Source: Kiritimatiellia bacterium (lineage in GTDB: Bacteria; Verrucomicrobiota; Kiritimatiellia; RFP12; UBA1067). From it: a stretch of DNA of 64,000 nucleotides. The notes beneath the pieces are model-generated. The model searched no databases. It was not told the DNA's origin and saw only the letters and a list, made by a program, of their open reading frames with translations. The translations under genes and the position numbers were made by a program. The stretch spans positions 751 to 64,750 of the forward strand of contig JAFUEM010000028.1 in assembly GCA_017463935.1 (NCBI GenBank). Reading direction: 5' to 3'. Each line of letters begins with the position of its first letter. Positions within the stretch are counted from its first letter, which is position 1. This document shows, piece by piece, positions 45,637 through 59,300 of this stretch.

Positions 45637-45831
45637 GTCGTCTTGACTCCTTTCTCGTGATGACGGCGCATAGTATAGCATTTCCGCCGAACAGAATATG
45701 TTGGCACGACAACATATTGATCATCGTCCGCAAGGGATGCACGCCGTTGGTGTTTTTATCTCACGCAGAGAAGCAGAGAAGCGGAAAACGCAGCGTCTGC
45801 CATCCAAGGGAAAATGATATAATATTTCTCG

Positions 45832-46512
45832 ATGCAACAGGAAGACACCTATTTGCTGGCGCGGGCCAAGCGATCCGCGCTGTTTGACGGAATCGGCACC
45901 GAAAAGCTCGCGGCGCTGCTGTCCTGCCTTGGTGCGCGTCGCCGCCGCCTTGCAAAAGGCGAGGCGCTGATGCACACGGGCGAGAAAGCCGATCGTATCG
46001 GCGTCGTGCTGTCGGGCTCGCTGGCCGTCTCGACCTACGACCTCTCCGGACGCCACACGCTCATCAAACACATCGGCGTAGCGGAAATCGTCGCCGCCGC
46101 GCAGTCGCTCGCGGGCGCCGCCACGCTCGGCGTCGATGTCGAGGCCGTTGAGGCGTCCGATGTGCTGATCCTGAAAGCCGACCGCATTCTCGCGCCGTGC
46201 GAAAATGCCTGTACGTTCCACACGCGCCTCGTGCGGAATCTGATGCAGTCGCTGGCGGTCAAGACGCTGGAGCTCAATCGCAAGATCGACATCCTTTCGC
46301 ATCGCTCCACGCAGGACCGTCTGATGGCCTACCTGCACACCGTTGCGCAGCAGAAAGGTTCAAACGAATTCGACATTCCTTTCGACCGTCAGCAACTCGC
46401 GGACTTCCTCTGCGTCGAGAGGAGTGCCCTTTCTGCTGAAATCAGCCGGCTGTCTAAACTCGGCCTCATCACATCGCGGAAAAGCCACTTCGCCCTGCAC
46501 CGCAACATTTAA
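45832..46512 (+). CDS. Crp/Fnr family transcriptional regulator
   Basis: cNMP-binding-like N-terminal domain and C-terminal HTH (RQQLADFLCVERSALSAEISRL). Confidence 0.85.
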   Translation: MQQEDTYLLARAKRSALFDGIGTEKLAALLSCLGARRRRLAKGEALMHTGEKADRIGVVLSGSLAVSTYDLSGRHTLIKHIGVAEIVAAAQSLAGAATLGVDVEAVEASDVLILKADRILAPCENACTFHTRLVRNLMQSLAVKTLELNRKIDILSHRSTQDRLMAYLHTVAQQKGSNEFDIPFDRQQLADFLCVERSALSAEISRLSKLGLITSRKSHFALHRNI

Positions 46513-46542
46513 TGACCAGCCCGCGCGCGCCGCACAGCGGAG

Positions 46543-47028
46543 TCAGGCGAGCTCTTTGTAGTACGGGCAGATATTGGCGAAGGAGCCGTCCTTCATGCGA
46601 AAGCCGTGCGGAATGGTACCGAGCTGTGTGAAGCCAAGTCGCTCGTAAAGATGCCGCGCGTGTGCATTGCTTTCAACGACAGCGTTGAATTGAAGAACCC
46701 GGAACCCGTGTTCCTTCGCCTGTGCGAGGCAGTCAAGGACAAGTTTCTCGCCGATGTGCCGCCCCCGGCATCTCGAGCTGACGGCGTAGCTAGCGTTGCA
46801 GATGTGTCCGCAGCGTCCGACATTGTTCGGATGGAGAATGTAGAGGCCCACAACTTCCCCGCCTTCGTCCAACGCGACGCCCGTGTATGTCTGTGCTGCG
46901 AAGAATTCCTTTCCAGTGTCGTGCGTCAGCTGTTCTTCCTGCGGGAACGCGTCTCCCGCCTCCACGATCTCGTTCCAGATGGCAATCATGCCGTCGATGT
47001 CATTCTCTTCGTGATTTCGGATTGTCAT
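46543..47028 (-). CDS. GNAT family N-acetyltransferase
   Basis: ORF 46543..47049; acetyl-CoA binding motif RCRGRHIGEKL. Confidence 0.8.
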   Translation of the reverse strand: MTIRNHEENDIDGMIAIWNEIVEAGDAFPQEEQLTHDTGKEFFAAQTYTGVALDEGGEVVGLYILHPNNVGRCGHICNASYAVSSRCRGRHIGEKLVLDCLAQAKEHGFRVLQFNAVVESNAHARHLYERLGFTQLGTIPHGFRMKDGSFANICPYYKELA

Positions 47029-47038
47029 TTGCGTTTGG

Positions 47039-47386
47039 TTACCTTTCAATTGGATGGTAGTCGATCTTCGATTCCTCGTCGGCCGCTTCGAGCTTCATGA
47101 TGACGGAGCGGAGTCCGTCGTTGCAGCTCACGATGGCGACGCCCGGCTTCTTGATCCAGTCGCCGTAGTAGAAGAGCGACTTGTCCGCGCCGTGCGCGAG
47201 CGCAAACACATACTGGTAGATCGCCTTCCACGCCTCGTCGCAGAATCCCAGAGGCTTCGCATAGTCGGCATAGAACACGTCTCCCGCCTTCATCATCGGA
47301 CAGGCGGTCAACCCGTCGATGCCGTATTCCGCCGCAAGCTCCTTGTCGAGCGTCGTCTTCAGAATCGTGACTTTTACCTTCTTCAT
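47039..47386 (-). CDS. TIGR04076-like small protein, copy 2
   Basis: About 92% nt identity to 10569..10916. Confidence 0.55.
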   Translation of the reverse strand: MKKVKVTILKTTLDKELAAEYGIDGLTACPMMKAGDVFYADYAKPLGFCDEAWKAIYQYVFALAHGADKSLFYYGDWIKKPGVAIVSCNDGLRSVIMKLEAADEESKIDYHPIER

Positions 47387-47397
47387 GTTATTCTCCT

Positions 47398-47731
47398 TCA
47401 CTCCCTGCCGAGAAACGGCCCGGCTTCCCTATCGGTGGCTTCGAGTTTGAAGTACACAGGGCGAAGGCCGTCGTTGCAGCATGTGATGACCTTGCCCGGT
47501 TCCTTCATCCATCCGCCGCCGTAGAACTCGCGCACCCCGCAGGCGAGGGCGAACACGTACTGGTTGATCGTGCGCCACGCGGCGTCGCACATTCCCTTCG
47601 GGCATGTATTTGTCGCGTAGAAAACCTGCCCGGCTTTCAAGACGGGACACGGCTCGAGATTCGGCACGGCGTATTCATCCGCAAGGTCTTTCTTGAGCGA
47701 TGTCTCAAGCACTGTTATTTTTACGACTGTC
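47398..47731 (-). CDS. TIGR04076-like paralog
   Basis: MTVVKITVLETSLKKDLADEYAV...; GGAGGG SD; roughly 45% aa identity to the other copies. Confidence 0.5.
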
Positions 47732-47783
47732 ATAGATCCCTCCATTTTGAATTTTACGACGAATCGTTTTGACGTTGTCATGA

Positions 47784-47872
47784 GGGAGGGCCGACCTCCG
47801 TGTCGGCCTTTCCCGACGCGGCCGGGACGGCGCCCGGCCCTCCCAGCGTGGGGACAGCGCCCGGCCCTCCCA
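47784..47872. repeat. REP array (GGGAGGGCCGACCTCCGTGTCGGCC and GGCCGGGACRGYGCCCGGCCCTCCC hairpin units)
   Basis: Palindromic GC-rich units repeated; same units at 48361..48497 on the other side of the RAYT gene. Confidence 0.6.
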
Positions 47873-47885
47873 CATTTGCCTTGTG

Positions 47886-48360
47886 TTATCGATCATGCCA
47901 TTCCAGAATATTCATTTCACCTTGATACGGCCAGTCATCCGCATTATCGACAAGGCCACGACGCACTGGGTTATTCCGCACATATTCCCACTTTGCCGCA
48001 TAACTGTCTCCACTGCGGAGTTGCGTATCCCAGCAGTTCCGCTGCCACAGCGGAATGCTGTGCTCGACGGGAAAGGTCCGCGACGAAAGCGACTTCCAAT
48101 AGTTGAGCCAACGATGGAAATCAGGCGGTGGATATGTTGATGGTGCGCAGAAGAAATGTATGTGATCGGGCATGATGACAAAACGCCCGACAAGCCAGTT
48201 GTCGGCTTTTCGCCACGCGTTGATTATACAATCAAAGGCGATCTTGTTGTCCAGCACCTTTTGTCGAAGATTCGCAACTATGGTAACGAAAAGAACAATC
48301 GTCCTGTTGTCATGCGTCAACAGAACTGAGTTCTTCGATGGCCGCTTGCGCCCACGCATG
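47886..48360 (-). mobile_element. REP-associated tyrosine transposase (RAYT, IS200-like HUH)
   Basis: HUH motif MPDHIHFF, catalytic Tyr region AAKWEYVRNNP; flanked by REP arrays; the ORF track's 5' extension to 48581 is REP-encoded. Confidence 0.7.
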
Positions 48361-48497
48361 GGAGGGCCGACCTCCGTGTCGGCCATTTCCCCCGCGGCCG
48401 GGACAGAGCCCGGCCCTCCCGCAACCATGCACATGGGAGGGCCGACCTCCGTGTCGGCCTTCTTCGCCGCGGCCGGGACGGTGCCCGGCCCTCCCGG
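48361..48497. repeat. REP array flanking the RAYT gene
   Basis: Three or more copies of the same palindromic units as 47784..47872. Confidence 0.6.
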
Positions 48498-48543
48498 CGT
48501 GCCGCCGTCACCAAAAGAAATCGTCGCTCGGCTTTGCATCCCA

Positions 48544-49125
48544 TCACACCTTTTTAAACACGAGCCCCGCCTTGAATGCATCGGCGGCCTTTTCGCCGAC
48601 CGCGAGATAGCGCCAATTCTCCTCGTCGTAGATGATCGGCTTGAGCTTCTCGAGCGAATACTTCCCGCGCTCGTCGAGGATGCTTTCGTCGGCCTGTATG
48701 TTCACGACCTCGCCCGTAATCTGCACGTGACTGCCGATTGTGACCGTATTCACGACCTTGCACTCGACAACCAGCTTCAGCTCGTTGATGACAGGCGCAT
48801 TGACCTTCTCGGCTTTCGTCACCGTCCAGCCGACTTCGGCAATCTTGTCGTGCTCGTAGCCGGACGCGATGCCGATATAGTCCGCCTCCGCCACCTGCTC
48901 AATGCTCGGATAACCGATCGTGAACGCGCCGGAGTGCAGGATGCTTTTCAGCGTCTTGCGCTTCGCCGTCGCGTTGATTGCGATGGTCAGGCACGGCGGC
49001 TTGTGGCTTGACGGCGTGTAGAACGCAAGCGTGCAGGCATCCGCCTTGCCCTTCTCGTCATACGCCGCCGCGATGATCGCGGGCGTCGGCGAAACAACCG
49101 CCCGCAGCTTGAGAGATTTCTTCAT
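48544..49125 (-). CDS. flavin reductase-like FMN-binding protein (paralog 2)
   Basis: Start MKKSLKL with AAGGAGG SD. Confidence 0.75.
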   Translation of the reverse strand: MKKSLKLRAVVSPTPAIIAAAYDEKGKADACTLAFYTPSSHKPPCLTIAINATAKRKTLKSILHSGAFTIGYPSIEQVAEADYIGIASGYEHDKIAEVGWTVTKAEKVNAPVINELKLVVECKVVNTVTIGSHVQITGEVVNIQADESILDERGKYSLEKLKPIIYDEENWRYLAVGEKAADAFKAGLVFKKV

Positions 49126-49598
49126 ATTGCATCCTCCTTGCATCGCCAGTATTTGTCGGTGTGTTTGATGGCGTGATGAAAAGCGAGGAAAACTACAGCT
49201 GCCGGCAAGAGCGCAAGCACGACAACTGCTCGTCCAGCTATAATTGCTGCAATCACAACCATCGCGGCGAACAGGAAGGCCAACGCAGCTATCAACCAGC
49301 CAAGAACCGGCGAGTCTGACTGCTTGCGCAATTTTTGTCTTATGGCGTCCATCTTGGCGGAGCCTAGCGTCGGCATGCTGTCCGCAGCCTTGAGGACTTC
49401 AACAGTCCTGCTCCATGTCCATACACCACATGGAGAACGTTTGTAACCAAGTTTCTCCATGTGAAACAATATCCTTAGCGTGCGAAGGCCCCTAATCGCG
49501 ATGTAGCACCATGCCACGAGAAAGCACAAACAAACTGCCGCCGCCGTGCCCAAGAACGCGACGAGCGCAGGGTGGTCTAATAGTTCGTTCGGAGTCAT
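49122..49598 (-). CDS. hypothetical membrane protein
   Basis: 158 aa with two or three hydrophobic segments. Confidence 0.45.
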   Translation of the reverse strand: MTPNELLDHPALVAFLGTAAAVCLCFLVAWCYIAIRGLRTLRILFHMEKLGYKRSPCGVWTWSRTVEVLKAADSMPTLGSAKMDAIRQKLRKQSDSPVLGWLIAALAFLFAAMVVIAAIIAGRAVVVLALLPAAVVFLAFHHAIKHTDKYWRCKEDAI

Positions 49599-50155
49599 GA
49601 ATGCAGTAACTTCCCGACGGAGAATGCGGGGGCAACGACATCACCCATGATGCGATAGACGTGCTGGCAGGGGTCGAAGCAGATCGGCTTCATCTTCGCG
49701 GCGTCGGGCTTGCCGTCGGTAAGCGCCGCTTCCTCGACCGCGCAGTTGATGATCTTCCCGACGACGTTGCAGCTCTCCTCGTTCATCGAGACAAGTTCGC
49801 ATTCAAGGACGAGCGGCAGCTCGTTGACGACCGGTGCGTTGACGAACTCGCTCTTCGTGAGCGTGAAGCCGCTCTTGGCGACCTTGTCGGACGTCTTGTT
49901 GCCGCTGGCGAGTCCCAGGTAGTCGCAGGCCGCGACCTTGTCGGCGGTGCCGAAGGCGACGGTGAACGCCTTTCGTGCCGCGATGTTGCCCCAGGTCTTG
50001 TGCGAGGTGTCGATGCAGATCGTTATCTCGTCCTCGAGCGTGATCCCACCCCATGCGGCGTTCATCACATCGGGCGTTCCGTCTTCCCCGTAAGTGCCGA
50101 TCATCAACACCGGCATCGGAAACATCCAGTTCTTCTTGTCAAAGTTCTTTTTCAT
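49595..50155 (-). CDS. flavin reductase-like FMN-binding protein (paralog 3)
   Basis: Start MKKNFDKKNW with AAGGAG SD. Confidence 0.75.
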   Translation of the reverse strand: MKKNFDKKNWMFPMPVLMIGTYGEDGTPDVMNAAWGGITLEDEITICIDTSHKTWGNIAARKAFTVAFGTADKVAACDYLGLASGNKTSDKVAKSGFTLTKSEFVNAPVVNELPLVLECELVSMNEESCNVVGKIINCAVEEAALTDGKPDAAKMKPICFDPCQHVYRIMGDVVAPAFSVGKLLHS

Positions 50156-50196
50156 GGTGCGGTCTCCTTTTCCTCTATAGACTTGCATGATTCTCT

Positions 50197-51570
50197 TTAG
50201 CGCTGCCAACCCTCTATCTTGCAGATGCGCTCTGCCAGCTTGCGTTCGGGCTTACCGGAGTCTGGCTTGAACCACACTTCTATTCGCGCCACATACGGCT
50301 TGCCCCAGTCACCTTCGTAGATCGTGAACTCGTTTTCGTAGAGGAACTTCTCGTCCGGATCCTGCGACCAGCCAATACGCTCGTTTGAGCTGCCGTAAAG
50401 ACGTCCCTCCGACAGGCGCGTCCCTTTCGTTACCTCGTATGCCTTCAGATAAGCCACGCCAGGTTCACCCGGATTGAGTCGCAATGTCAGATTGTAGATG
50501 CCTGGCTGCATGCCGTCGCGAAGCACGAATTCCTCAGGTCCGCGCTTGACCGCATCCGCCGGCAATTTAAGCTCGGCAAACTCCGCCTTCAGGAATGACA
50601 AAGCCGCATTGGTGATGCGCCTTTCGCGCGCCGGTGTCTGCTCGAACACCTCTACGCAGAAGTCTTTGTCGCCGAAACACTCGCAGCTTGTGAAATCGCC
50701 AGGATTAGCCGTGGAACCTCCCCATTCGCGCAACCCAGCCACGACCGTTGCCGTTGCCGGATGCTCCGCGCCTTTCTTCCGCCCGAATGGCGAATACGGA
50801 AACCCGAGAGTCGTCCGTGTCTGAAAGCGCGTGGTTCTCTGGTGGGCCTCGAAATTCTCGCCGGGACGCATCGTGCGCGAATTGCCCGAATAGTATCCGT
50901 GAAGAGGATGATTCCAGATTTCTCGCACACGCAAGCGGCGTGTCGCACTTAGGTGTCCATGGTCTTCGTGCAGCCACCAGCCAGGATGGCGGGCGAGATA
51001 TGCCATCAGTTCGTCACGCCGATTGTGGACTAAATCCGCTAGCCCGGAAAGATCGCAGGTCACCGTGGCATCTTCGCCGCCGTCTTTTGCAAGGCTTTTG
51101 AAAACGCTCAGGGCGAAGTCGTCGTCATAGACATCGGCAGTGCTGAACTGGCAGCCTTCGAAACCGCTTTCGGGCGTTACGATTGTCGCCTCGACTTCCG
51201 GAGGAATCGTCAGCGCGTCGGCAAAGTGGTCCTCGCTTGGGCCAAACATCACCCTGAAAAACAGCATCGCAACCGCGCAAAGGAAGCCGACCATCCATGC
51301 CACGCCAAGAACTGTCTGCAACAATGCTCGCTTCCAGCGTCGCTTGAAAAGCGAAACAACCCATGCGACAAAATACACGATTCCCGCAATCAGCAGCAAC
51401 GCCAGCAGCGCAAACCCGACATAGCGCACAATCGGTTTCTGCACCGTTCGCGCAAGAAAAAGATCGAGAATCGTCACAGCGACAAGCAGAGCCGTTGCGC
51501 CGCACAATACGACGAACGCGCCGTACCATGTGTCGAACAGGAATTGAACAAGGCCTTTCTCAGTTTTCAT
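50197..51570 (-). CDS. hypothetical membrane-anchored protein (457 aa)
   Basis: Four N-terminal TM helices then a large soluble domain; no recognisable motif. Confidence 0.5.
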   Translation of the reverse strand: MKTEKGLVQFLFDTWYGAFVVLCGATALLVAVTILDLFLARTVQKPIVRYVGFALLALLLIAGIVYFVAWVVSLFKRRWKRALLQTVLGVAWMVGFLCAVAMLFFRVMFGPSEDHFADALTIPPEVEATIVTPESGFEGCQFSTADVYDDDFALSVFKSLAKDGGEDATVTCDLSGLADLVHNRRDELMAYLARHPGWWLHEDHGHLSATRRLRVREIWNHPLHGYYSGNSRTMRPGENFEAHQRTTRFQTRTTLGFPYSPFGRKKGAEHPATATVVAGLREWGGSTANPGDFTSCECFGDKDFCVEVFEQTPARERRITNAALSFLKAEFAELKLPADAVKRGPEEFVLRDGMQPGIYNLTLRLNPGEPGVAYLKAYEVTKGTRLSEGRLYGSSNERIGWSQDPDEKFLYENEFTIYEGDWGKPYVARIEVWFKPDSGKPERKLAERICKIEGWQR

Positions 51571-51622
51571 CGTGATTAATTCCTTACTGGAATCTTGGTG
51601 TCAGCCATTGGATTGAAAGCGG

Positions 51623-52000
51623 TTATGCACGGAAAGCCCTCGCATCGAGCAGCGGGACTTCCTTGAAGTGCTTTGCGTTTCCGCTAAGAAGCGTGTCGCC
51701 GCTTTCAAGTGCCGTGGCGAAAATCAGCGCGTCGCATACGCCGAGGTCGCTTTTCAGCGCCGTGGACTCCATTATGGAAATCGCGCGGGTTGAGATTTCC
51801 GCAGTCACGGGCAATGTAGCGAAGCCGAGTATCGAAAGGAAGCGCTTCATTGAAAGCATTTCCGCCTTGTTCCTGACGCCTTGCAGAAGCTCCATGTAGG
51901 TGACGGAGGAAATAGAGCGCGTTGTCGCCTCGTCTATCGCATCAAGTGCCTTTCCGTTGCCGCGAAAAGCCCATATCATCACGTCGGTGTCGAAGATCAT
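51623..52000 (-). CDS. vapC: PIN-domain toxin VapC
   Basis: MIFDTDVMIW... with conserved acidic residues (D4, E, D). Confidence 0.7.
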   Translation of the reverse strand: MIFDTDVMIWAFRGNGKALDAIDEATTRSISSVTYMELLQGVRNKAEMLSMKRFLSILGFATLPVTAEISTRAISIMESTALKSDLGVCDALIFATALESGDTLLSGNAKHFKEVPLLDARAFRA

Positions 52001-52266
52001 GCGAACCTCCGCCGCGCACGGAGATTGCGGACATACTCGGTCGGCGACGTAAGGTCGTCGCGGTCCGCCCACATTCCGGCAGCTGCGCAATCCCTTGCGG
52101 ACGGCGTATTCGGCTTCGCGTCTTCCCATGCGACCATTATTGCCCAGGGGCGTCCGTGTGAAGAGACGGTGACGCGCTCGCGCCGAGAGATCGCGCCTTG
52201 GATTTCGGGCATACGCCTCCTGAAGTCAAGCATTGTGGCATTCATCTTTTGCTCCAATATGCTCAT
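51997..52266 (-). CDS. vapB: Phd/YefM-like antitoxin VapB
   Basis: 89 aa; 4 nt overlap with vapC. Confidence 0.55.
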   Translation of the reverse strand: MSILEQKMNATMLDFRRRMPEIQGAISRRERVTVSSHGRPWAIMVAWEDAKPNTPSARDCAAAGMWADRDDLTSPTEYVRNLRARRRFA

Positions 52267-52285
52267 TTAAACTGTGCATATTGTA

Positions 52286-52774
52286 TCATATGCAGTTGCT
52301 TTGTGCAAGGGGGCAATGGGTTAGTTGCCTGTAGCACTCGTACGCGGCGATGGAGACGGCGTTTGCAAGGTTGATGCTTCGCGCATGTTCGCCGGGCATG
52401 GGGATCTTGAAAAGCGATTCTTTGTAGCGGTCGTAGAAGTCCTTTGGCAGTCCTGACGACTCATTCCCGAACACAAGCGCGTCGCCTTCGGAAAAACGGC
52501 ATTCGTATAGTGACTTCTCTCCGTGCGTCGAGAGAAAGAAGAGTCGCTTGGGCTTTGCCGCCGCAAGATACTCATCCCAAGTGTCGTGAAGCACGACGTC
52601 GAGATGCGGCCAGTAGTCGAGACCTGCGCGGGCGACGTAGCGGTCGTCGAGGGCGAAGCCGAGGGGTCTTACGAGATGAAGCGGCACGCCCAGCCCCACG
52701 CAGAGTCGGCCTATCGCCCCTGTATTGTGCGGGATTTCAGGACGCAGGAGGACGATTGAAAAGCAATGCTTCAT
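52286..52774 (-). CDS. trmL: tRNA (cytidine/uridine-2'-O)-methyltransferase TrmL (SpoU family)
   Basis: SPOUT motifs LVFGNESSGLP and IPM-x-SLN. Confidence 0.8.
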   Translation of the reverse strand: MKHCFSIVLLRPEIPHNTGAIGRLCVGLGVPLHLVRPLGFALDDRYVARAGLDYWPHLDVVLHDTWDEYLAAAKPKRLFFLSTHGEKSLYECRFSEGDALVFGNESSGLPKDFYDRYKESLFKIPMPGEHARSINLANAVSIAAYECYRQLTHCPLAQSNCI

Positions 52775-52992
52775 AGTGGCTCGGACCGCTTCATCAGCTT
52801 CCCATCGCGCTCAATGGTCTCGAAGAACATCTTTGCGGGACGTACCCACAAGCCACCATCGCCGTAAAGGGCGCGATACACGACCATCTCCTCCAGCGGC
52901 TCTGAGTCCTTGGCGAACCCTTCAAGGCGGTAGCGGTTACCCTTGAAGTGCCGGAGCTCGCGCCTGACCAGACCTGTCTTATCTTCATCCAT
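52771..52992 (-). CDS. DUF1653 family protein
   Basis: HFKGNRYRLEGFAKDSEPLEEMVVYRALYGDGGLWVRPAKMFFE; paralog at 54036..54269. Confidence 0.65.
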   Translation of the reverse strand: MDEDKTGLVRRELRHFKGNRYRLEGFAKDSEPLEEMVVYRALYGDGGLWVRPAKMFFETIERDGKLMKRSEPL

Positions 52993-53047
52993 GTCCTACC
53001 CTCATATCCTACTGCCCTGATCGAAGACCAATCTGCCATGTTGTTTT

Positions 53048-53419
53048 CTACCTTGCATGGGTAAAGGGTCCGCCTTCAGCCTGTGTGCCGCACCACGAAC
53101 ACTGCGCTTGACCAGAAAGGATCGTGCGACCGCACTGGCGACATGTCAGAGGGTCAGTCTGAGTCGAGTCCTGGCCGTCAAGCCGACCATCGCGCATGTC
53201 TATCTCCTGTACCTTGGTATCAAGATCGGCATCCGTGAGGCCTGCTTTATCTTTTAGCAACTCCCACATTGCCTGGACGACCAGATACAGCCGTTCCGTG
53301 TTCTTTCGCGTCTTGTCGGATGACATGGCGCTTTCACGCGCGACATCGCGGGCGTGTTGAGCATCAACTTGCGCGATGAAGTTCTGCGCATACTCAATAT
53401 GCTGTCCCAGACCACTCAT
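53048..53419 (-). CDS. hypothetical protein with C-terminal zinc ribbon
   Basis: CRQCGRTILSGQAQCSWCG. Confidence 0.45.
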   Translation of the reverse strand: MSGLGQHIEYAQNFIAQVDAQHARDVARESAMSSDKTRKNTERLYLVVQAMWELLKDKAGLTDADLDTKVQEIDMRDGRLDGQDSTQTDPLTCRQCGRTILSGQAQCSWCGTQAEGGPFTHAR

Positions 53420-54039
53420 CAATCACTCACCTTTCTATTTTCATTGTCGGCACTACCTTCTTTGCGAGATTCTGCAACCCAGGCGTCGAGCATGGTCCGC
53501 GCTATCGATCCGTGGCGGGGGATTTCCGGCAGGTGCGCGCGGTCGAACCACCCGGACTCCACGACCTCCTCGCCGTCGGGCTTGAGTTCGCCGGAAGCGT
53601 ACTCCGCCCTGAAGCCGATCATGATGTTCGACGGGAACGGCCACGTCTGCGATCCGAAGTAGCGGATGTCCTTCACCTCGATGGACGCCTCTTCGCGGAC
53701 TTCGCGTCTGATGGCGTCCTCCAGACTTTCGCCCGGATCGACGAATCCGGCGACAAGCGACCACACGACGCCACGGTAGTGTGTATTCCTCTGCAGGAGC
53801 ACCTTGTCGCCTTTCGTGACGAGGACTATCACGGCGGGCGAAATCCTGGGATAGACCGTGTAGCCGCATTTCGCGCACACGAGCGCCCGTTCGTCGGGAT
53901 TGGCGTGCGGCTTCATCTCCGCGCCGCAACGTCCGCAGAAGCGGTTGCTCTCGCGCCATTCGGAGATCTCCGCCTCACGCGACGCCTCGCGCATCTCGTC
54001 GGGAGTCATGTCGCGGAAAGTGTCTCGGAGGTTCTTCAT
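53419..54039 (-). CDS. nudC: NAD+ diphosphatase (NudC-type NUDIX hydrolase with zinc ribbon)
   Basis: CGRCG...CAKCG zinc ribbon then Nudix box GFVDPGESLEDAIRREVREEASI. Confidence 0.8.
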   Translation of the reverse strand: MKNLRDTFRDMTPDEMREASREAEISEWRESNRFCGRCGAEMKPHANPDERALVCAKCGYTVYPRISPAVIVLVTKGDKVLLQRNTHYRGVVWSLVAGFVDPGESLEDAIRREVREEASIEVKDIRYFGSQTWPFPSNIMIGFRAEYASGELKPDGEEVVESGWFDRAHLPEIPRHGSIARTMLDAWVAESRKEGSADNENRKVSD

Positions 54040-54269
54040 TCTGAATCCTCCAGAAGTTCAAAGCGCTTCATGGTATTCCCGTCCCGCTCGACGGTCTCGA
54101 AGAACATCTTTGCGGGACGTACCCACAAGCCACCATCGCCGTAAAGGGCGCGATACACGACCATCTCCTCCAGCGTTTCGGAGTCCTTTGCGAATCCTTC
54201 AAGCCGGTAGAGCTTCCCTTTGAAATGCCGGAACGTCCGCCCGATCAGTTGTTTCTGTTCTTCTGTCAT
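54036..54269 (-). CDS. DUF1653 family protein
   Basis: 77 aa, about 85% identical to 52771..52992. Confidence 0.65.
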   Translation of the reverse strand: MTEEQKQLIGRTFRHFKGKLYRLEGFAKDSETLEEMVVYRALYGDGGLWVRPAKMFFETVERDGNTMKRFELLEDSE

Positions 54270-54290
54270 CTGCTGTTCTTCTTCGCATTA

Positions 54291-54425
54291 TTTCGCGGCG
54301 AGCTTGAGTCCAACAATCCCCGCGACGATGAGCGCGGCGGACGCGACGCGCAGCGCAGACGCCGACGCGCCGAACAGGATGATTCCCGCAACGAATCCGC
54401 CGACCGCGCCGACGCCTGCTCCGGC
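54291..54425 (-). pseudogene. sugE C-terminal remnant (44 codons) directly in frame after the gpx stop codon
   Basis: Read after gpx TAG: [45 protein letters not shown]. Confidence 0.5.
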
Positions 54426-55073
54426 CTACTTTTCCGACAGGAGCGCCTCAAGGCTGGCGGCGAGCGCGGCGGGCGTCGTCTTGGGGCCGCTGCGCTTGAC
54501 GACGTTTCCATTGCGGTCCACGAGGAACTTGGTGAAGTTCCACTCGATGTCGCCGGGCGCCTCCGCGCCGGTCATGCCGTGCTTCTTCAGAAGCGCGCGC
54601 AGCGCGGCGGTCTCTTCCGCGGGATCGTCGTCCGCCGGCTTCTGCTCCTTGAGGAATTTGAAGAGCGGCTCGGCGTTCGCGCCGTTCACCTCGATCTTCG
54701 CCAGCTGATCGAACGTCGTATTGTACTTGAGCGTGCAGAACCGGTGAATCTCGTCATCGCTGCCGGGCGCCTGGTGCCCGAACTGATCGCACGGGAAGTC
54801 GAGAATCTCCAGCCCCTTGTCGTGGTACGCGGCGTAGAGCCTCTCAAGCCCCTCGTACTGCGGCGTGAAACCGCAGCCGGTCGCCGTGTTGACGATCAAG
54901 AGCACCTTGCCCCTGAGCGATGAGAGGTCAAGGCTCGCTCCATTGCGGCCTTTTGCCGTGAACTGATAGATGGTGTCCATTTTTGTGTTCTCCTTTAGAT
55001 TGGCGCATCCGCCGCCCAGCAACGTTGCCAGGCCGAGCGACGTAAGCGCGATGAGCTTTGATGCGGTTTTCAT
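54426..55073 (-). CDS. glutathione peroxidase (putative lipoprotein)
   Basis: Signal peptide with ...LLGGGC; active-site region NTATGCGFT; 215 aa. Confidence 0.85.
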   Translation of the reverse strand: MKTASKLIALTSLGLATLLGGGCANLKENTKMDTIYQFTAKGRNGASLDLSSLRGKVLLIVNTATGCGFTPQYEGLERLYAAYHDKGLEILDFPCDQFGHQAPGSDDEIHRFCTLKYNTTFDQLAKIEVNGANAEPLFKFLKEQKPADDDPAEETAALRALLKKHGMTGAEAPGDIEWNFTKFLVDRNGNVVKRSGPKTTPAALAASLEALLSEK

Positions 55074-55082
55074 TGTCGGTTC

Positions 55083-56021
55083 CTAAGCGCGGTTGAACTT
55101 GTCCTTGGGCTGCTTGCAGCGCGGACAGCGCCAGTCGGCGGGAAGGTCCTCGAACGCGACGCCGTCGTGCTCGGCGGGATCGTACACGTAGCCGCAGACG
55201 GAACAAACGTATTTGCCTGTCGGAGTCTTGAACACGATTTCGCCCGGCGGGATGACGGCAGGCGGATTTGCGAGATCGACGACGCGCTTCGCCTCAAGGC
55301 TTTCCAGCGCCTCCGGCGTGTGCGTGCCGAGCCAGACGGTCGGACGCGCGGCGCAGAACGCGCGGCAGCGGTCGAGCGTCTCGCGGGCGGCGGCCTTGTC
55401 TTCGTAGACGACGGACAGCTTGTTCTCGTAGAAAGCCACGTCAGTGTAGGTGACGTCGCCGTGGATGAGGTAGAAAAGTCCGTCGGACTCAACGGCGACG
55501 ATGCAGTTGCCGTTCGTGTGCCCGGGCGCAGAAATGTACGTCACGCCGTCCGCTATGCGCTGCGACGCCGGGAACTCGTAGTAGGGGCCATCCTGAAACG
55601 TCGCCACGGTCGGGTTGAACGGCTTGATCTCGTCCGATTCAGCCTCGGCAGCCGAGCAGATGATCTGCGCGTTCGGGAAGAAGCGCAGTGCGCCCGTGTG
55701 GTCGGCATGCTTGTGGGTGATGAGAATCTTCGAGACCTGCTCTGGCTTGTAGCCAAGGTCGGCAAGCGCCTCGATGTACGGCTTGATTTTCTTGCCGACA
55801 TAGATTGTCGCATCCTCTGTCGGTTCACCAAAGGGGAAGTCCTCGGGGACGCCCGTATCGACGAGGATGACTTCGCTCCCAGTGTCGATCACCCAGTTCT
55901 GGAGGCACGAGCGGTACTTGACCGCAGGGTCGAGTCCTTCCGCACCTTCGCCACCAAGGGCAAATGGACGCGTCATGAAACCGTTTTCGGCAAAACGGAC
56001 GGGCTTTATCGCTATGCTCAT
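55083..56021 (-). CDS. MBL-fold hydrolase fused to C-terminal rubredoxin domain
   Basis: [14 protein letters not shown] motif; C-terminal CSVCGYVY...CPRC rubredoxin knuckles. Confidence 0.75.
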
Positions 56022-56057
56022 TTTTATAGTTCCTTTCTCTGATTGTGGCAGGATAAA

Positions 56058-56573
56058 TCAAAGCCGACTGACGAGTTGGAGGATCTTGTCGCGGGTGGCG
56101 TCCGTCTTCTGCTCGTCGATCTTGGCGGTGACGACGCCGGCGTCCTCCACGCCCCAATAGCTTTGGATGCCATGGTACTCGCCGAGCGCGCCGTCATAGA
56201 CGCCGGGCGAGTAGGAGGAGAGCAGAAGCGCCATCTTCTTCAGCTTGCCGGGCTTCTGCATGTTGTAGATGCGCTGGATCGGGGCCTGGATCTGCGCGGA
56301 CATCGTGAAGTAGTAGATCGGCGCAGCGAGCACGAGCGCCTCCGCCTCGGCGAGAAGCGGATAGAGTTCCTGCATGTCGTCCTTCTGGACGCACGTTCCG
56401 TTGCCTTTGCCGTGGCAGTACTCGCAGGCCATGCAGCCAGCGATCTTCTTGTGCGCCACATCGACGAGCGTCACTTTGTGGCCGGCCGTTTCAGCGGCCT
56501 TGCGGAACTCCCCGGCCATCCAAGCCGTGTTCCCGTTCGCCCTCGGCGAACCCTGCAATATAAGGATGTTCAT
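56058..56573 (-). CDS. flavodoxin-like NAD(P)H-dependent FMN reductase / iron-sulfur flavoprotein-like
   Basis: MNILILQGSPRANGNT...; CMACEYC cysteine cluster. Confidence 0.7.
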   Translation of the reverse strand: MNILILQGSPRANGNTAWMAGEFRKAAETAGHKVTLVDVAHKKIAGCMACEYCHGKGNGTCVQKDDMQELYPLLAEAEALVLAAPIYYFTMSAQIQAPIQRIYNMQKPGKLKKMALLLSSYSPGVYDGALGEYHGIQSYWGVEDAGVVTAKIDEQKTDATRDKILQLVSRL

Positions 56574-56599
56574 TTTGTCAATTCCTTTCGTAGGAAGTT

Positions 56600-56974
56600 T
56601 TAGGATTGTACTTCGGTCGGCCTTGCGGCGTAGTCGATTGTCACGCCGATGCCGAAGTGGACATAGTAGTCAGGATTCCCGGCGACCGGAATCCAGAAAG
56701 TGGTCATCCGCGGGGTGGTCTCCGTCTTCTCCGTGTAAAGCCACGTAGTCGTGCCGACCTTGCGCATCTGCGCCTGGCGGCAAAGGCCGGCCTTCAGCCT
56801 GGGGCACCCCTGCGCACAGACGACGCCAGGCTTGCGTCCGTAGCGATCGCACGCCGGATTGACCGCGACCACGCGGTACGTCTTGTGGCATAGTTGCACG
56901 GGTTCGGGGAGTCCGTCGTACATGAGGTGGAACGCCTCGCTCAGCTTCGCCTCAATCTGTTCTTGTTCTGTCAT
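56600..56974 (-). CDS. hypothetical protein
   Basis: ORF 56600..56998; start MTEQEQIEAK; no recognisable motif. Confidence 0.4.
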   Translation of the reverse strand: MTEQEQIEAKLSEAFHLMYDGLPEPVQLCHKTYRVVAVNPACDRYGRKPGVVCAQGCPRLKAGLCRQAQMRKVGTTTWLYTEKTETTPRMTTFWIPVAGNPDYYVHFGIGVTIDYAARPTEVQS

Positions 56975-57022
56975 CGTGCCTTCCTTTCTTGTGGGCAATA
57001 GTATACCACAATTTACGTCTGA

Positions 57023-58099
57023 CTACTTAGTCGCTTCGGCGTAGGCGGCGTCGTCCACGGGCTCGCACCATTCGTTCGACTGTTCCGTACCGGGCACTTC
57101 GAGCGCGATGTGTTGGAACCACGAATCGGGCGCGGCACCGTGCCAGTGTTTGACGTTCGCGGGGATGTTCACCGTGTCGCCTCGCTTGATGCGGCGAGCC
57201 GGTTTTCCCCATTCCTGGTAGTAGCCCTCGCCGGCCGTGACGATGAGCATCTGACCTCCGCCGGCCTTCGCGTGGTGGATGTGCCAGTTGTTGCGGCAGC
57301 CCGGCTCGAACGTCACACCGAACGCCGGCACCTGGTCGAGCGTCAGCTTGTGAAGGTAGCTGTTGCCGATGAAGTACTTGGCGTACGCCGTGTTCGGCTC
57401 GCCCACGGGAATCGGCGACCAGTCGCGCGGAAGATCTGCGGGGTTGCGCGGCAGCTGCACGCGCCGCACGATTTCCGCCGCCTGCGCGTCGGTGCTGCCG
57501 TTCAACTTCCCGATGGCGATGTGCGCCTTCATCTGCGGCGCCGTCTCGGGGCGTGCCGCGAGCGCGGCGATGGTGACGATCTCGCGCGTGCGCCAGTCGA
57601 CGTTGTTGCGCGCGAAGATGTCGCCGAAGAGATGAGTCTTCAGGTATTCGTCGAGCTGCGGATGGAAGTCGAAGAGCGCGCCCTTGACCGGTCCGCCGCA
57701 GAGCCTCGTCTGATTGGCCGTGCCGATCTCCAGCGCCTTGTCTCCCAAAACAAACGACCCGCCGTTACGGATCTTCCCACCATTCTCATTCTCTGCACTC
57801 TCCGCCTCTCCGCGCCTCCGCGTGAGACCATATCCTTCAATCTTCATAAGCGTCGCGGCGGCGTTGAGCGCACGCGGGAAGCCACAGTAGGCGTAGAGCT
57901 GCCCGACAAGTTCCTTCGCCTCGTTGAGCGTGAGTCCCGCGTCGAATCCCGCCTTGAACGCCGCGCCGAGCTTGTCCTGCTCGCCGCGCGCCGTTCCCGC
58001 GCCGATAGCGACGATCGCCGTTTCCTTGGCGGTGAGTTCCGCCGCGTTTGCCATCATTGCACTGGCCATTGCCATTCCTCCAATTATAAGTTTTTTCAT
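57023..58099 (-). CDS. secreted carboxymuconolactone decarboxylase (AhpD-like) - cupin fusion protein
   Basis: Signal peptide; CMD-like N-terminal half and C-terminal cupin; inter-domain linker GLTRRRGEAESAENENGG is encoded by the GCGGAGA repeat. Confidence 0.65.
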   Translation of the reverse strand: MKKLIIGGMAMASAMMANAAELTAKETAIVAIGAGTARGEQDKLGAAFKAGFDAGLTLNEAKELVGQLYAYCGFPRALNAAATLMKIEGYGLTRRRGEAESAENENGGKIRNGGSFVLGDKALEIGTANQTRLCGGPVKGALFDFHPQLDEYLKTHLFGDIFARNNVDWRTREIVTIAALAARPETAPQMKAHIAIGKLNGSTDAQAAEIVRRVQLPRNPADLPRDWSPIPVGEPNTAYAKYFIGNSYLHKLTLDQVPAFGVTFEPGCRNNWHIHHAKAGGGQMLIVTAGEGYYQEWGKPARRIKRGDTVNIPANVKHWHGAAPDSWFQHIALEVPGTEQSNEWCEPVDDAAYAEATK

Positions 58100-58107
58100 T
58101 TCGTGTT

Positions 58108-58166
58108 TTCCTTTCTTTTTATCTCACGCGGAGAGGCGGAGAAGCGGAGATTTTTTCGGACGGGCG
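58108..58166. repeat. direct repeat DR1 of GCGGAGA-repeat family (TTTTATCTCACGCGGAGAGGCGGAGAAGCGGAGATTTTTTCGGACG)
   Basis: 47 bp identical to 58686..58732; encodes (reverse strand) the last 10 codons and stop of the GxxExxY gene. Confidence 0.6.
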
Positions 58167-58550
58167 AGGCCCTGAATAGTCTTTCACAATCCTCGCATAG
58201 CCATCTTTCAGTTTCTCCATGCCAAAGTTGACTAGAACTCCAACATGGAGTCCTGTCACGGTCAAATATGTCTTAACTTGTTTAGCAAAGACAGGATGCA
58301 TCTGTTCGGTAGACTTAAGTTCCACAATGACCATCCCGTCAACGAGCATATCCAATCTGAAGGCAGTATCCAGCACCGCCCCCTCGTATTCAAGAGATAT
58401 GGGCTTTTGCCGTTCCACCGTATGTCCTCTCCGCTTCAGTTCCTCCGCGAGCAAGATCTCATAGACAGACTCCAGCATGCCAGGACCGAATTGCCTGTGA
58501 ATCTTGATTGACGAATCAAGGATATCCTTTGTTATCTCGTTTTCAGTCAT
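58119..58550 (-). CDS. GxxExxY family protein
   Basis: ORF 58119..58568; start MTENEITK...; GxxExxY-like LESVYEIL; bracketed by the repeats. Confidence 0.7.
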   Translation of the reverse strand: MTENEITKDILDSSIKIHRQFGPGMLESVYEILLAEELKRRGHTVERQKPISLEYEGAVLDTAFRLDMLVDGMVIVELKSTEQMHPVFAKQVKTYLTVTGLHVGVLVNFGMEKLKDGYARIVKDYSGPRPSEKISASPPLRVR

Positions 58551-58675
58551 AACACAAACCTCCGCCACTCCGCACCTCCGCGTGAGAAAAGATTCACCGC
58601 CCTGCCGAGGCCGATGCGCGAGACATCTATATCTGTGTCGCCGAGTTTCACGTACTGCATGTTTCTGTCCTTATT

Positions 58676-58733
58676 CTTTCATTCTTTTTATCTCACGCGG
58701 AGAGGCGGAGAAGCGGAGATTTTTTCGGACGAA
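58676..58733. repeat. direct repeat DR2 of GCGGAGA-repeat family
   Basis: Identical 47 bp core; additional inverted partial copy at ~58560..58600 immediately upstream of the GxxExxY start. Confidence 0.6.
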
Positions 58734-58750
58734 CGAGGGCCATGTGGCTC

Positions 58751-59263
58751 TCAGAGGGTCTCCACGAGCTCGGCGACGCTCTTGCGCTTCGCGTGCTGCG
58801 GCGCGGGCTTGGCCGAGGGATCGGCGTAGCCGACGGGGAAGATGGCGACGAGGTCGTAGCCGGCGAGTCCGGGAATCAGCGCCTGGAGTTTCGGCGCGTC
58901 GAAATGTCCGACCCACGTCGAGGCAAGCCCCTGGTCTTCGATGGCGAGCATCAGGTGCGTCGCGACGATTGTCGCGTCGACATCGGCGAAGTTCGCCTTG
59001 TCCGCCGGGCGCACCCACGCATCCTCGCGTTTCGCCCCGACGACGAGAAACACGCCCGCGCCGAAGGTGAACGGCGTCGCGTCGTGTATCGCCTTCACGG
59101 CGTCGGGCGACTTGGCGACCCAGATCTTGAACGGCTGCTTGTTCACCGCCGTCGGAGCGAGAATGCCCGCCTCGATGATCGCGTCGAGCTTCTCCTGCTC
59201 CACGGGTTTCGCCGCCAGTTTGCGGCACGAGTAGCGGCGTCTCGCCAGTTCGTTGAATGTCAT
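58751..59263 (-). CDS. nitroreductase family protein
   Basis: 170 aa; typical NAD(P)H nitroreductase N-terminus RRSCRKLAAKPV. Confidence 0.8.
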   Translation of the reverse strand: MTFNELARRRYSCRKLAAKPVEQEKLDAIIEAGILAPTAVNKQPFKIWVAKSPDAVKAIHDATPFTFGAGVFLVVGAKREDAWVRPADKANFADVDATIVATHLMLAIEDQGLASTWVGHFDAPKLQALIPGLAGYDLVAIFPVGYADPSAKPAPQHAKRKSVAELVETL

Positions 59264-59300
59264 TGTCGTTCTCCTTTCCTGATGTCCGTCTTCCGGACCT

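Follow-up and report, generated by a model that had tools for sequence, protein, structure and literature searches.

A GCGGAG-type repeat recurs between and within genes in a 64,000-nucleotide stretch of a Kiritimatiellia bacterium genome (contig JAFUEM010000028.1; hereafter, the window), with several copies around a small GxxExxY gene, which raises the question of whether it is chance GC-rich sequence, a structure serving its host, or part of an element that moves. Our analysis indicates that the repeat is the arm of a hairpin-forming, apparently selfish DNA element of many bacterial phyla; no description of this palindromic element was found in the literature searched.

Repeat copies in the window

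A search of the window recovered every motif copy listed in a preliminary description, at or near its coordinates, confirming that the copies are real. The three-unit pattern TCTCAC(GCGGAGnn)x3 has 5 copies in the window against ~0.02 expected by chance, and the generalised pattern (RCRRAR n2-3)x3 gives 6 overlapping matches, all at the same five sites, against 0.14 expected. The view that the motif is chance low-complexity GC-rich sequence can appeal to the 12-mer TCTCACGCGGAG, which, with 2 mismatches allowed, is no commoner in the window than in shuffled sequence. It is refuted by the motif counts and is further contradicted by the fixed polarity of partner arms (see below) and by a third unit, not demanded by the search pattern, in 117 of 166 external matches (70%, versus ~1% by chance), so that we give it practically no credence. 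The features of the window are as follows.

44601-44667, minus strand: complete hairpin of a sister class with ACAGGATT-type 9-nt periodic arms, in frame in the bicupin gene (44175-44885), encoding TGFTGLTELREQENHVNLVNPV
45759-45786, plus strand: degenerate solo arm of the GCAGAG subclass, TCTCAC GCAGAGAA GCAGAGAA GCGGAA, between divergent genes, upstream of a Crp-family gene
57023-58099, minus strand: host gene for a CMD-CMD-cupin protein of 358 aa (open reading frame and domain assignment)
57780-57829, minus strand: solo purine-rich arm, TCTCAC GCGGAGGC GCGGAGAG GCGGAGAGT GCAGAGAAT GAGAATGG, in frame in the CMD-cupin gene, encoding LTRRRGEAESAENENG
58108-58172, minus strand: DR1, the conserved cassette tail, the 3′ pyrimidine-rich arm (TCTCCGCTTCTCCGCCTCTCCGCGTGAGA-TAA) and the beginning of the CMD-cupin 5′ UTR; an orthologous junction (L046) has the identical arm
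58119-58550, minus strand: GxxExxY / PDDEXK_3 gene, 143 aa (PF13366, E 2e-36; TIGR04256, E 9e-37)
58556-58590, minus strand: 5′ purine-rich arm TCTCACGCGGAGGTGCGGAGTGGCGGAGG, assigned from TCTCAC(GCGGAGnn)x3, inverted repeat I1 and the polarity rule of external arm pairs
58589-58660, minus strand: aldo/keto reductase remnant comprising the first 24 codons (MQYVKLGDTDIDVSRIGLG...), joined to the 5′ arm and called within a 37-aa open reading frame
58677-58741, minus strand: DR2, a solo 3′ end (tail and 3′ arm) that begins 10 nt past the nitroreductase stop

The plus-strand G-rich cores (58122-58150 and 58691-58719) each lie inside one copy of the direct repeat, and reverse-complement copies of the motif lie at 58556-58590 and 57799-57827. 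DR1 and DR2, initially described as 47 bp identical repeats, are 65 nt long and share 60 of 65 bases, with a longest identical run of 50 nt. They had been taken to bracket the GxxExxY gene; the repeats exist, but the structural unit is the inverted pair 58119-58153/58556-58590 (I1; 35 nt, 83% complementary), rather than the direct repeat, one member of which is a relic.

The segment 58119-58590 probably represents one complete copy of a palindromic element, consisting, on the minus coding strand, of a 5′ arm, a gene-bearing loop and a 3′ arm. The loop comprises a ~125-aa PD-(D/E)XK 'GxxExxY' nuclease gene and a conserved GPRPSE tail. The 5′ arm, correctly placed in the preliminary description right before the GxxExxY start, stops 8 nt short of the ATG at 58550, and its last unit includes GGAGG, the Shine-Dalgarno sequence of the gene. 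The complementary, pyrimidine-rich 3′ arm ends in GTGAGA-TAA, providing stop codons; DR1 does encode the 3′ end of the gene, as was noted, although it contributes the last 17 codons and the stop, not 10 codons. The family core spans aa 5-122 of the open reading frame, and the tail GPRPSEKISASPPLRVR, with its stop, reads through the 3′ arm; a GP(R/K)PS tail is kept in GxxExxY homologs. The complete element is located inside a co-directional array of small redox genes, and its gene has a GC content of 46-50%, versus 62-67% in the surroundings. No recognisable promoter was found for the element, and promoter or terminator consensus sequences are absent at the window repeats checked. Folding of the mRNA predicts that GGAGG is masked by the nearest arm pair (z -4.4).

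The function of GxxExxY proteins is listed as unknown (PMC3424549). Membership in PF13366/TIGR04256, the invariance of D67 and E77-x-K79 in GxxExxY proteins, and a predicted structure (AF2 pLDDT 95) with Cas4 and lambda-exonuclease as nearest folds suggest that the protein is probably nuclease-competent.

The remaining copies are best read as debris or offshoots of the same element family, namely, the solo arms at 57780-57829 and 45759-45786, and DR2. No canonical partner arm for DR2 was found in the survey of arm-pair polarity; on the mRNA strand, DR2 is predicted to pair with the 5′ arm 58556-58590. DR2 is best read as the surviving 3′ end of a second cassette, the rest of which has been deleted. 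The adjacent aldo/keto reductase remnant matches the N-terminus of a PF00248 protein of 330 aa (68% identity over 19 aa), the gene for which lies, at another locus (L164), directly upstream of the same GxxExxY cassette. Deletions that left DR2 behind would also have taken most of the aldo/keto reductase gene.

Two copies lie in frame within protein genes. The 57799-57827 core, in open reading frame 57023-58099 (minus strand), encodes GLTRRRGEAESAENENGG; it had been described as an inter-domain linker, and it is indeed in frame, but it separates the N-terminal CMD domain (aa 10-82) from another CMD-like region (aa ~144-214), ahead of the cupin domain, and does not directly join CMD to cupin. 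The proposed check on orthologs bore out the insertion: the arm is absent from CMD-cupin orthologs with a short type-B linker, and other alleles carry different periodic motifs at the same linker site. Likewise, most bicupin orthologs (214 aa) lack the hairpin at 44601-44667 (predicted dG -28.6, z -5.4), and others have different inserts in the same loop. Thus, the in-frame copies are polymorphic among orthologs, and the CMD-cupin arm is best read as a copy fixed in frame in a tolerant protein linker.

A superfamily of periodic-arm hairpins

The repeat family is not specific to this genome but spans many phyla. At least 120 genome stretches, drawn from more than 10 phyla, carry this motif, those of the isolates Trichlorobacter thiogenes and Geminisphaera colitermitum among them. 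It was also found in 33 viral contigs and on plasmids of Sphingomonas, Sphingobium, Nostoc PCC 7120 and Gemmatirosa; most of the comparative data are metagenome assemblies and bins. Its usual form is an "empty" hairpin, that is, a purine-rich arm, a loop of 3-260 nt and a pyrimidine-rich arm. These comparisons show that the arms belong to a superfamily of periodic-arm hairpin elements, most copies being short-looped and gene-less, with the general form YCAC-(RCRRARnn)n ... (nnYTYYGY)n-GTGR and 8-9-nt arm periodicity. Polarity is fixed: adjacent purine-then-pyrimidine arm pairs are separated by less than 300 nt in 81 of 89 cases, the reverse order being rarely so close, and an ungapped 28-nt partner arm lies downstream in 51/166 occurrences and upstream in 1/166. 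The predicted hairpin folds are stable (-44 kcal/mol, z -6.6 to -8.1, for L046).

Conceivably, albeit improbably in our view, these hairpins are host-serving structures of operon transcripts (REP-like mRNA stabilisers, RNase III sites or translational couplers), the GxxExxY gene being unrelated and lodged there by chance, and the additional copies in the window resulting from local duplication and deletion. Consistent with this possibility, most hairpins are gene-less and sit between co-directional genes, the genes next to them are of common housekeeping types (147 neighbouring open reading frames represent 148 different Pfam families, with no enrichment of mobile-element genes), predicted folds are strong, and no target-site duplication was found at the hairpins examined. 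However, terminator features are absent from the hairpins, and a host role leaves unexplained the near-identical arm sequences over more than 10 phyla, viral contigs and plasmids, the in-frame copies within proteins, the nesting and tandem arrays, the different arm classes at one orthologous site, and the way in which arm classes follow GxxExxY lineages.

The proposed check on whether other GxxExxY genes are similarly bracketed was positive. Complementary periodic arms bracket 15 of 19 GxxExxY loci, with flanks complementary at 15-20 of 20 positions; at least 6 arm classes occur at these loci, and cognate 5′ and 3′ flanks match best, i.e., the class co-varies between the two sides. GxxExxY genes are thereby shown to be typically bracketed by matched pairs of periodic arms. 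Isolates of Sphingomonas (fabD|cassette|fabG, GCGAAG arms) and Bacteroides (radA|cassette, CACAGAGG arms) conform to this arrangement, and the read-through peptides LRASAPPRE and LTQRRGEAESAE are found on GxxExxY homologs. The association proposed in the preliminary description is, nevertheless, one-sided: most GxxExxY genes have arms, but only 1 of 153 motif-selected loci has the gene. Among 72,556 plasmids, the motif is on only 31 and a GxxExxY gene on only 7; Gemmatirosa plasmid NZ_CP007129.1 has both. Given the gene's presence at only 1/153 motif loci, most hairpins persist, and perhaps spread, without GxxExxY, and the nuclease could be a passenger of the hairpins.

Another scenario, which we rate as rather less likely still than a host role, is that the hairpins are non-autonomous MITE- or REPIN-like elements mobilised in trans by a transposase encoded elsewhere (e.g., Y1/RAYT), with GxxExxY as cargo. 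The inverted arms with a short loop and the large excess of empty over gene-bearing copies would fit, as would the absence of target-site duplication, a feature of the Y1/IS200-type chemistry of REP elements, and a RAYT-like Y1 transposase is encoded in the window. That transposase, however, is flanked by another palindrome, GGGAGGGCCG..., not by GCGGAG arms; no linked transposase was found, and no transposase family is enriched beside ~150 copies of the hairpin; and the gene that is consistently flanked by arms, as RAYT genes are by their REPs, is GxxExxY.

Probable mobility and proposed mode of spread

By sequence comparison, the same cassette is shown at different junctions, along with nested hairpins and filled beside empty copies. 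Specifically, the cassette with its arms, at 91-97% aa identity, occupies four different gene junctions (L162, L163, L164 and the window). L046 has the order Fe-ADH|empty hairpin|CMD-cupin at the orthologous junction, with a 3′ arm identical to that of the window, and a different arm class occupies the same orthologous site in L161. Filled and empty modules are found in tandem, arms are nested (hairpin within hairpin) in L169 and L188, and the gene order of the island is shuffled among relatives. No strain pair differing solely by the presence of the gene at one site was found among the comparative genomes. The four junctions, the empty hairpin at the orthologous junction, the low-GC gene, the CMD-cupin orthologs without the linker copy and the non-random motif counts uphold the earlier suggestion of a mobile or recombinogenic mini-element tied to the GxxExxY cassette.

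We favour, with a probability of roughly 60%, an ORF-bearing palindromic element, similar to IVS, REPIN and RPE, that spreads into hairpin loops and promotes rearrangements. Spread would proceed without target duplication, by homing, the element entering hairpin loops that already exist: its nuclease, specific for structure or sequence, would cut an empty hairpin or cruciform, and repair would copy the filled hairpin, the conserved arms providing homology. We infer a driving role of the GxxExxY nuclease in this process. Dispersed arms would also serve as substrates for ectopic recombination, which could shuffle, truncate and fuse neighbouring genes and leave solo arms behind. In the operon transcript, the arms would pair, masking the ribosome-binding site of the cassette and probably creating a double-strand RNA processing site; hence, we propose, insertion between or within genes is tolerated. 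Opposite arms, however, are often mismatched at the variable 'nn' positions, where G·T and A·C mispairs are about equally frequent (61 vs 51), so that this test, itself biased, lends no support to selection for an RNA helix in one strand.

As with free-standing homing endonuclease genes, a small nuclease gene would lie inside its own recognition site and spread by cleavage of empty sites and recombinational repair, and filled and empty versions of one site do exist; here, however, the mechanism is inferred only, and the target would be a hairpin present in many copies instead of one unique, conserved gene. The intervening sequences (IVS) of 23S rRNA genes (Leptospira, Coxiella) contain a small ORF of an otherwise orphan family within terminal inverted repeats, which pair into a long stem once the host gene is transcribed. 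The element resembles the ORF-bearing IVS in its inverted-repeat-enclosed small ORF, tolerated inside an essential transcription unit, but it resides in or between protein-coding genes instead of in rRNA helices, and its ORF belongs to PF13366, not to the four-helix-bundle IVS protein family.

Integron gene cassettes similarly combine a promoterless small ORF with a hairpin-forming site, attC, the core sites of which are RYYYAAC and GTTRRRY. The small ORF beside an imperfect palindrome and the co-directional array of small genes, in an order that varies among relatives, are reminiscent of such cassettes. Nevertheless, the arm ends, YCAC...GTGR, are unlike attC core sites, the gene lies within the hairpin instead of preceding it, no further arm copy is present in the 9-51 nt spacers between the other array genes on the downstream side of the cassette (54426-58099), no integrase is found among the 147 neighbouring ORFs in other genomes, and the element occurs singly inside core operons, e.g., fabD-fabG. 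An integron origin is therefore highly improbable.

Rickettsia palindromic elements (RPEs), which belong with other intragenic MITEs, are palindromic repeats found in frame within metabolic genes that are unrelated to one another, where the additional peptides that they encode are tolerated at the protein surface (PMC10969869). The in-frame arm of the CMD-cupin linker and the complete bicupin hairpin, both absent from orthologs, parallel such insertions. Unlike RPEs, the elements described here occur in many phyla, in bacteria that are free-living or inhabit the gut or rumen, are shorter (~30-nt arms, 60-100-nt hairpins) and, in some copies, carry a nuclease gene, which RPEs are not known to do; the sequences are unrelated.

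REP and REPIN sequences are short imperfect palindromes, intergenic, often in inverted pairs and lacking target-site duplication, and the associated RAYT (Y1) gene is flanked by inverted repeat copies. The likeness extends to the dispersed palindromes in inverted pairs, the lack of target-site duplication and an enzyme gene flanked by its own repeat. However, the flanked gene here encodes a 125-aa PD-(D/E)XK nuclease, not an HUH/Y1 transposase; the arms, which lack a GTAG-type head, are made of purine-rich units with an 8-9-nt period; one and the same arm sequence is shared by many phyla, whereas REPs are usually lineage-specific; and copies also occur in frame in genes. A textbook RAYT gene with flanking repeats is present in the same window, at 47784-48581.

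Repeat arms and the GxxExxY cassette

Our analysis bears out the GCGGAG-type repeat family claimed in the preliminary description. Within the window, which comes from a Kiritimatiellae metagenome assembly, the three-unit pattern is matched 5 times vs 0.02 times in shuffles, and the matches of a generalised purine-rich pattern, of which 0.14 were expected, are confined to the same five sites. The arm core reads TCTCAC-GCGGAGnn-GCGGAGnn-GCGGAG(A). The arms and the genes that they touch are the following:

58122-58150 and 58691-58719, + strand: copies of the arm core
57799-57827 and 58556-58590, - strand: reverse-complement copies of the arm
45759-45786: degenerate arm of the GCAGAG form
58119-58550, - strand: GxxExxY (PDDEXK_3) gene, recognised by the PF13366 and TIGR04256 profiles
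57023-58099, - strand: CMD-CMD-cupin gene, with the repeat in frame, encoding GLTRRRGEAESAENENGG

Both + strand copies lie inside a 65-nt direct repeat (DR1, 58108-58172; DR2, 58677-58741) with 60 of 65 positions identical. The direct repeat is present as near-identical copies, with a longest identical run of 50 nt, not the 47 nt first described. Its supposed role as a bracket of the GxxExxY gene has to be abandoned: the inner flank of the repeats corresponds to the 3′ tail that GxxExxY homologs conserve, so that DR2 is the remnant of a second cassette rather than a boundary of the present one. On the coding strand, the nitroreductase stop is followed by DR2 (a cassette tail and pyrimidine-rich arm), the 5′ UTR and first 24 codons of an aldo/keto reductase (AKR), the purine-rich arm, GxxExxY, DR1 (the GPRPSE tail and pyrimidine-rich arm) and the CMD-cupin gene. 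The AKR stump matches the start of a PF00248 gene that is complete (330 aa) in a related contig, where it lies directly 5′ of this same cassette. The last unit of the purine-rich arm, GGAGG, stands 8 nt before the GxxExxY ATG, and the pyrimidine-rich arm of DR1, preceded by the conserved GPRPSE tail, terminates in GTGAGA-TAA. The gene has a GC content of 46-50%, its surroundings 62-67%. The window holds a hairpin-bounded, promoterless GxxExxY cassette together with relic and solo arms. An Rfam search of the whole window returned no family at gathering score, with noise alone at the locus (E above 3).

When the mRNA strand is folded in silico, the DR2 arm is predicted to pair with the arm 5′ of GxxExxY and to cover its ribosome-binding site. 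A search for a promoter or terminator consensus at the repeats found none. One of the two main rivals of the reading that we propose below is that the hairpins are host regulatory structures and GxxExxY is a passenger. Within GxxExxY itself, the stretch that encodes LAEELKRRG (CTCGCGGAGGAACTGAAGCGGAGAGG; 58428-58457) resembles an arm unit; this segment is 70% complementary to the flanking arms and pairs with the 3′ arm in the predicted mRNA fold. A nitroreductase-family ORF of 123 aa (59301-59672) has a Pfam match confined to the C-terminal half of the profile. The ORF preceding it (87 aa) is in a different frame and has a signal-like start (MNRKEFIRGLGAAACAP); the region 59301-59929 may represent a frameshifted or truncated gene.

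The GxxExxY protein scores 125 bits against PF13366 (cut-off 22) and 126 bits against TIGR04256 (cut-off 35). The residues G24-x-x-E27-x-x-Y30, D67 and E77-L-K79 do not vary among 44 homologs. Cas4 SSO0001 and lambda-exonuclease are the solved folds closest to the AF2 model (pLDDT 95), with a weak E (3e-3); no solved structure matching the protein by sequence was found. Judging from catalytic residues and modelled fold, this is a predicted PD-(D/E)XK nuclease. The function of the family is listed as 'Unknown' (PMC3424549), and none for PF13366/TIGR04256 was found in the literature searched.

Periodic-arm palindromes across phyla

The arms of the cassette belong to a family of periodic-arm palindromes that crosses phyla. 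The exact pattern TCTCACGCGGAGnnGCGGAG occurs in 33 IMG/VR contigs and in GTDB genomes, where at least 120 stretches contain it; among the matches listed are two cultured isolates, genomes of 40 to 74% GC, and members of Verrucomicrobiota, Kiritimatiellae, Planctomycetota, Gemmatimonadota, Acidobacteriota, alpha-, beta- and gamma-Proteobacteria, Geobacter relatives, Spirochaetes, Chloroflexota, Nitrospirales, Armatimonadota and Bacteroidia. It is also present, without annotation, on Sphingomonas, Sphingobium, Nostoc PCC 7120 and Gemmatirosa plasmids, with up to 22 places on one 1.1-Mb Gemmatirosa plasmid. A third unit, beyond what the search pattern demands, is present in 70% of the matches vs ~1% by chance. 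Arm polarity is fixed: in 81 of 89 adjacent pairs, a complementary pyrimidine-rich arm comes within 3-260 nt after a purine-rich one, and of 166 occurrences, 51 have a strong partner on the downstream side and 1 on the upstream side. The resulting hairpins, predicted to fold stably, have arms of 26-35 nt and, when empty (gene-less), measure ~60-320 nt overall. Sister arms with the same grammar (GCGAAG, GCAGAG, GCAAAG, CACAGAGG, CACGGATG, ACAGGATT) adjoin GCGGAG arms or nest with them. Mispairs between opposite arms comprise 61 G·T vs 51 A·C, a comparison biased by the selection of the arms. The coding position of hairpins was judged from individually inspected cases; open-frame length was dropped as a test of coding vs intergenic position, given that high-GC genomes yield long spurious frames. 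On a Sphingomonas parapaucimobilis plasmid (NZ_CP155751.1, 2470-2720), purine-rich GCGAAG, GCGGAG and GCAGAG arms stand in series and are followed by pyrimidine-rich GCGGAG and then GCGAAG arms that match the outer two, producing nested hairpins between two convergent housekeeping genes.

The notion that the motif marks GxxExxY genes was dropped, because tblastn and a custom HMM recovered the gene from just one of 153 loci selected by the motif, and gave way to the converse association, that of GxxExxY genes with arm brackets, which is strong. The preliminary description had asked whether such genes are similarly bracketed in relatives: among 19 metagenome GxxExxY loci (35-97% identity), 15 have flanks complementary at 15-20 of 20 positions. 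These flanks fall into at least 6 sequence classes, and each 5′ flank is best matched by its own 3′ flank, i.e., the bracket covaries with the gene. In a Sphingomonas isolate, GxxExxY lies between GCGAAG-class arms at the fabD-fabG junction, and a Bacteroides isolate carries a CACAGAGG-armed copy after radA. Motif and gene, each rare among 72,556 plasmids, occur together on one Gemmatirosa plasmid. GxxExxY is the only ORF repeatedly seen between arms, and no recurrent gene family was found in loops of 200-2500 nt. The read-through extensions of GxxExxY homologs are translated arms, and the arms account for a common annotation artefact, N- or C-terminal extensions such as LRASAPPRE and LTQRRGEAESAE. 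In the literature searched, we found neither the link between GxxExxY and the arms nor the arm sequences themselves described; in full text, only three papers name the family, and the arm sequences turn up in no relevant context.

Insertion polymorphism between and within genes

Presence, absence and context of the elements are polymorphic. Cassettes 91-97% identical to that of the window occupy different gene junctions:

Fe-ADH and AKR
AKR and FMN-reductase
another gene and FMN-reductase
nitroreductase/AKR stump and CMD-cupin (the window)

At an Fe-ADH/CMD-cupin junction, one relative (L046) has a hairpin that encloses no gene and shares its 3′ arm exactly with DR1, and another (L161) has a GCAAAG-class hairpin. 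Elsewhere, filled (gene-enclosing) and empty modules are adjacent in tandem arrays, and arms nested within arms suggest that loops serve as entry sites. In two such arrays (L165, 370-1290; L166, 2690-3600), near-identical hairpin modules are separated by a conserved ~80-nt spacer (TAAAAAGTGCCGGGGAGAATGTATTTACAAACTTCGTG...); one module holds GxxExxY, and the loop retained by its empty neighbours, AGAGTTTCAAC, is similar to the first codons of the gene. The gene order of the redox-gene island (window 54426-59929) is different in every relative examined (L156, L159, L160, L161, L164), and the arms appear as recombination hot spots that shuffle this island among gut and rumen Kiritimatiellae. The island consists of small co-directional genes (nitroreductase, FMN reductase, flavodoxin, ABM, cupin, lactamase_B-rubredoxin, glutathione peroxidase); in L164, periodic-arm hairpins stand at several of its junctions.

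The elements also insert in frame into protein genes. The CMD-cupin orthologs are 83-95% identical elsewhere and sharply divergent at the linker, where the window has a solo GCGGAG arm (99 nt). As for whether orthologs would lack this insertion, those with the type B linker (63 nt, without periodic motif) do; in further forms, GCAAAG stands in tandem with GCGGAG/GCAGAG, or the linker holds a GTTGAAAG/TCTACACG array or a GGGAACGGGGAAT array. A second gene carries a whole hairpin:

44601-44667, - strand: complete 67-nt hairpin with ACAGGATT-type 9-nt periodic arms, in frame in a bicupin gene (44175-44885)

Placed in a cupin-domain loop, it adds ~22 residues (TGFTGLTELREQENHVNLVNPV), giving 236 aa vs 214 aa in most orthologs, which have no hairpin; three orthologs (P0241, P0266, P0268) carry different insertions in this loop. 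As the sequence itself shows, an arm read in the purine-rich sense contains no stop codon, and since three 8-nt units equal 8 codons, any frame gives similar hydrophilic peptides. A 16-residue insertion (GISPERSEHCAAMSLE) after HAKT in the cupin domain of three CMD-cupin orthologs (P0043, P0056, P0116; alignment A1, columns 305-320) is a possible further in-frame element. An aspartyl-tRNA synthetase-like ORF (...AKGLAWMK-ISRGGAEAQR-VLEGG...) of a Spirochaetaceae MAG of 49% GC (JAISIL010000138.1, ~1624-1643) contains the exact GCGGAG motif in frame, in a loop about as long as that of E. coli AspRS.

Known systems and a putative dedicated nuclease

In their in-frame insertion into protein genes (CMD-cupin, bicupin) and their absence from orthologs, the hairpins resemble the rickettsial palindromic elements (RPE; PMC10969869), a likeness of behaviour only, and extend the phenomenon of in-frame palindromic elements in enzymes to free-living bacteria. 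Like 23S rRNA IVS-type elements, the cassette is an ORF within inverted repeats able to form a transcript stem, but it lies between protein genes, outside any rRNA helix, and the window contains no rRNA. An integron cassette/attC reading was rejected: the arms end in YCAC/GTGR without attC core sites, the other intergenic spacers of the cassette's array (54426-58099) have no arm copy, the one other hairpin of the window (44601-44667, of a different arm class) is in frame inside a gene, and no integrase is found among the 147 neighbouring ORFs.

The second main rival holds that the hairpins are mobilised by an unlinked transposase, which would again make GxxExxY a passenger. The hairpins share with DDE-type MITEs their small size and terminal inverted repeats. 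Unlike these, the hairpins lack target-site duplications (none in 43 of the 54 compared, and 1-4 nt, the chance level, in the remainder) and a parent IS sharing their ends, and the 147 ORFs beside them include no transposase; these ORFs represent 148 Pfam families, with no enrichment of transposases, integrases or any other family. As short, multi-copy, extragenic imperfect palindromes, often in inverted pairs, the hairpins are similar to REP/REPIN, but the gene flanked by GCGGAG arms belongs to PF13366 rather than encoding the Y1 (HUH) transposase of REPIN-RAYT systems.

The reading that we propose is that spread proceeds by nuclease-assisted homing into hairpin loops, that the arms mediate ectopic recombination, and that masking or processing at the RNA level renders insertion tolerable. 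A bolder reading, to which we give a probability of roughly one in four, would make GxxExxY proteins nucleases dedicated to a superfamily of periodic-arm hairpins that crosses phyla, a PD-(D/E)XK counterpart of RAYT-REPIN in which each nuclease recognises its own arm class and drives homing of the gene into loops, with the far commoner gene-less hairpins, solo arms and in-frame insertions being decay products or parasitic derivatives. If the dedicated-nuclease reading is true, a large orphan protein family gains a function, and bacteria a previously undescribed class of mobile elements that reshapes operons as well as loops of proteins. PF13366/TIGR04256 is a large, widely transferred family, and the arm grammar is common to Kiritimatiellae, Proteobacteria, Bacteroidota, Gemmatimonadota, cyanobacterial plasmids and viral contigs; the consistent bracket of matched arms and this shared grammar make the function of the family directly testable, as a nuclease that might act on its own arms.

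Two further structures were observed in the window. A hairpin at 15142-15203, with 26-nt arms that are 88% complementary and an A/T-rich centre (CTAGAGTTTGCCCATTTTTTAGCACG / CGGGCGAAAAAATGGGCAAACTCCAG), shows no kinship to the GCGGAG family and looks terminator-like. A RAYT-like Y1 transposase gene (Y1_Tnp; 47886-48581, - strand; PF01797, 23.4 bits; HUH motif PDHIHFF) has on both sides (47784-47870 and 48360-48495) the palindrome GGGAGGGCCGACCTCCGTGTCGGCC / GGCCGGGACGGCGCCCGGCCCTCCC, which differs from the GCGGAG arms; the stretch 47784-48581 is a classical REPIN-RAYT arrangement.
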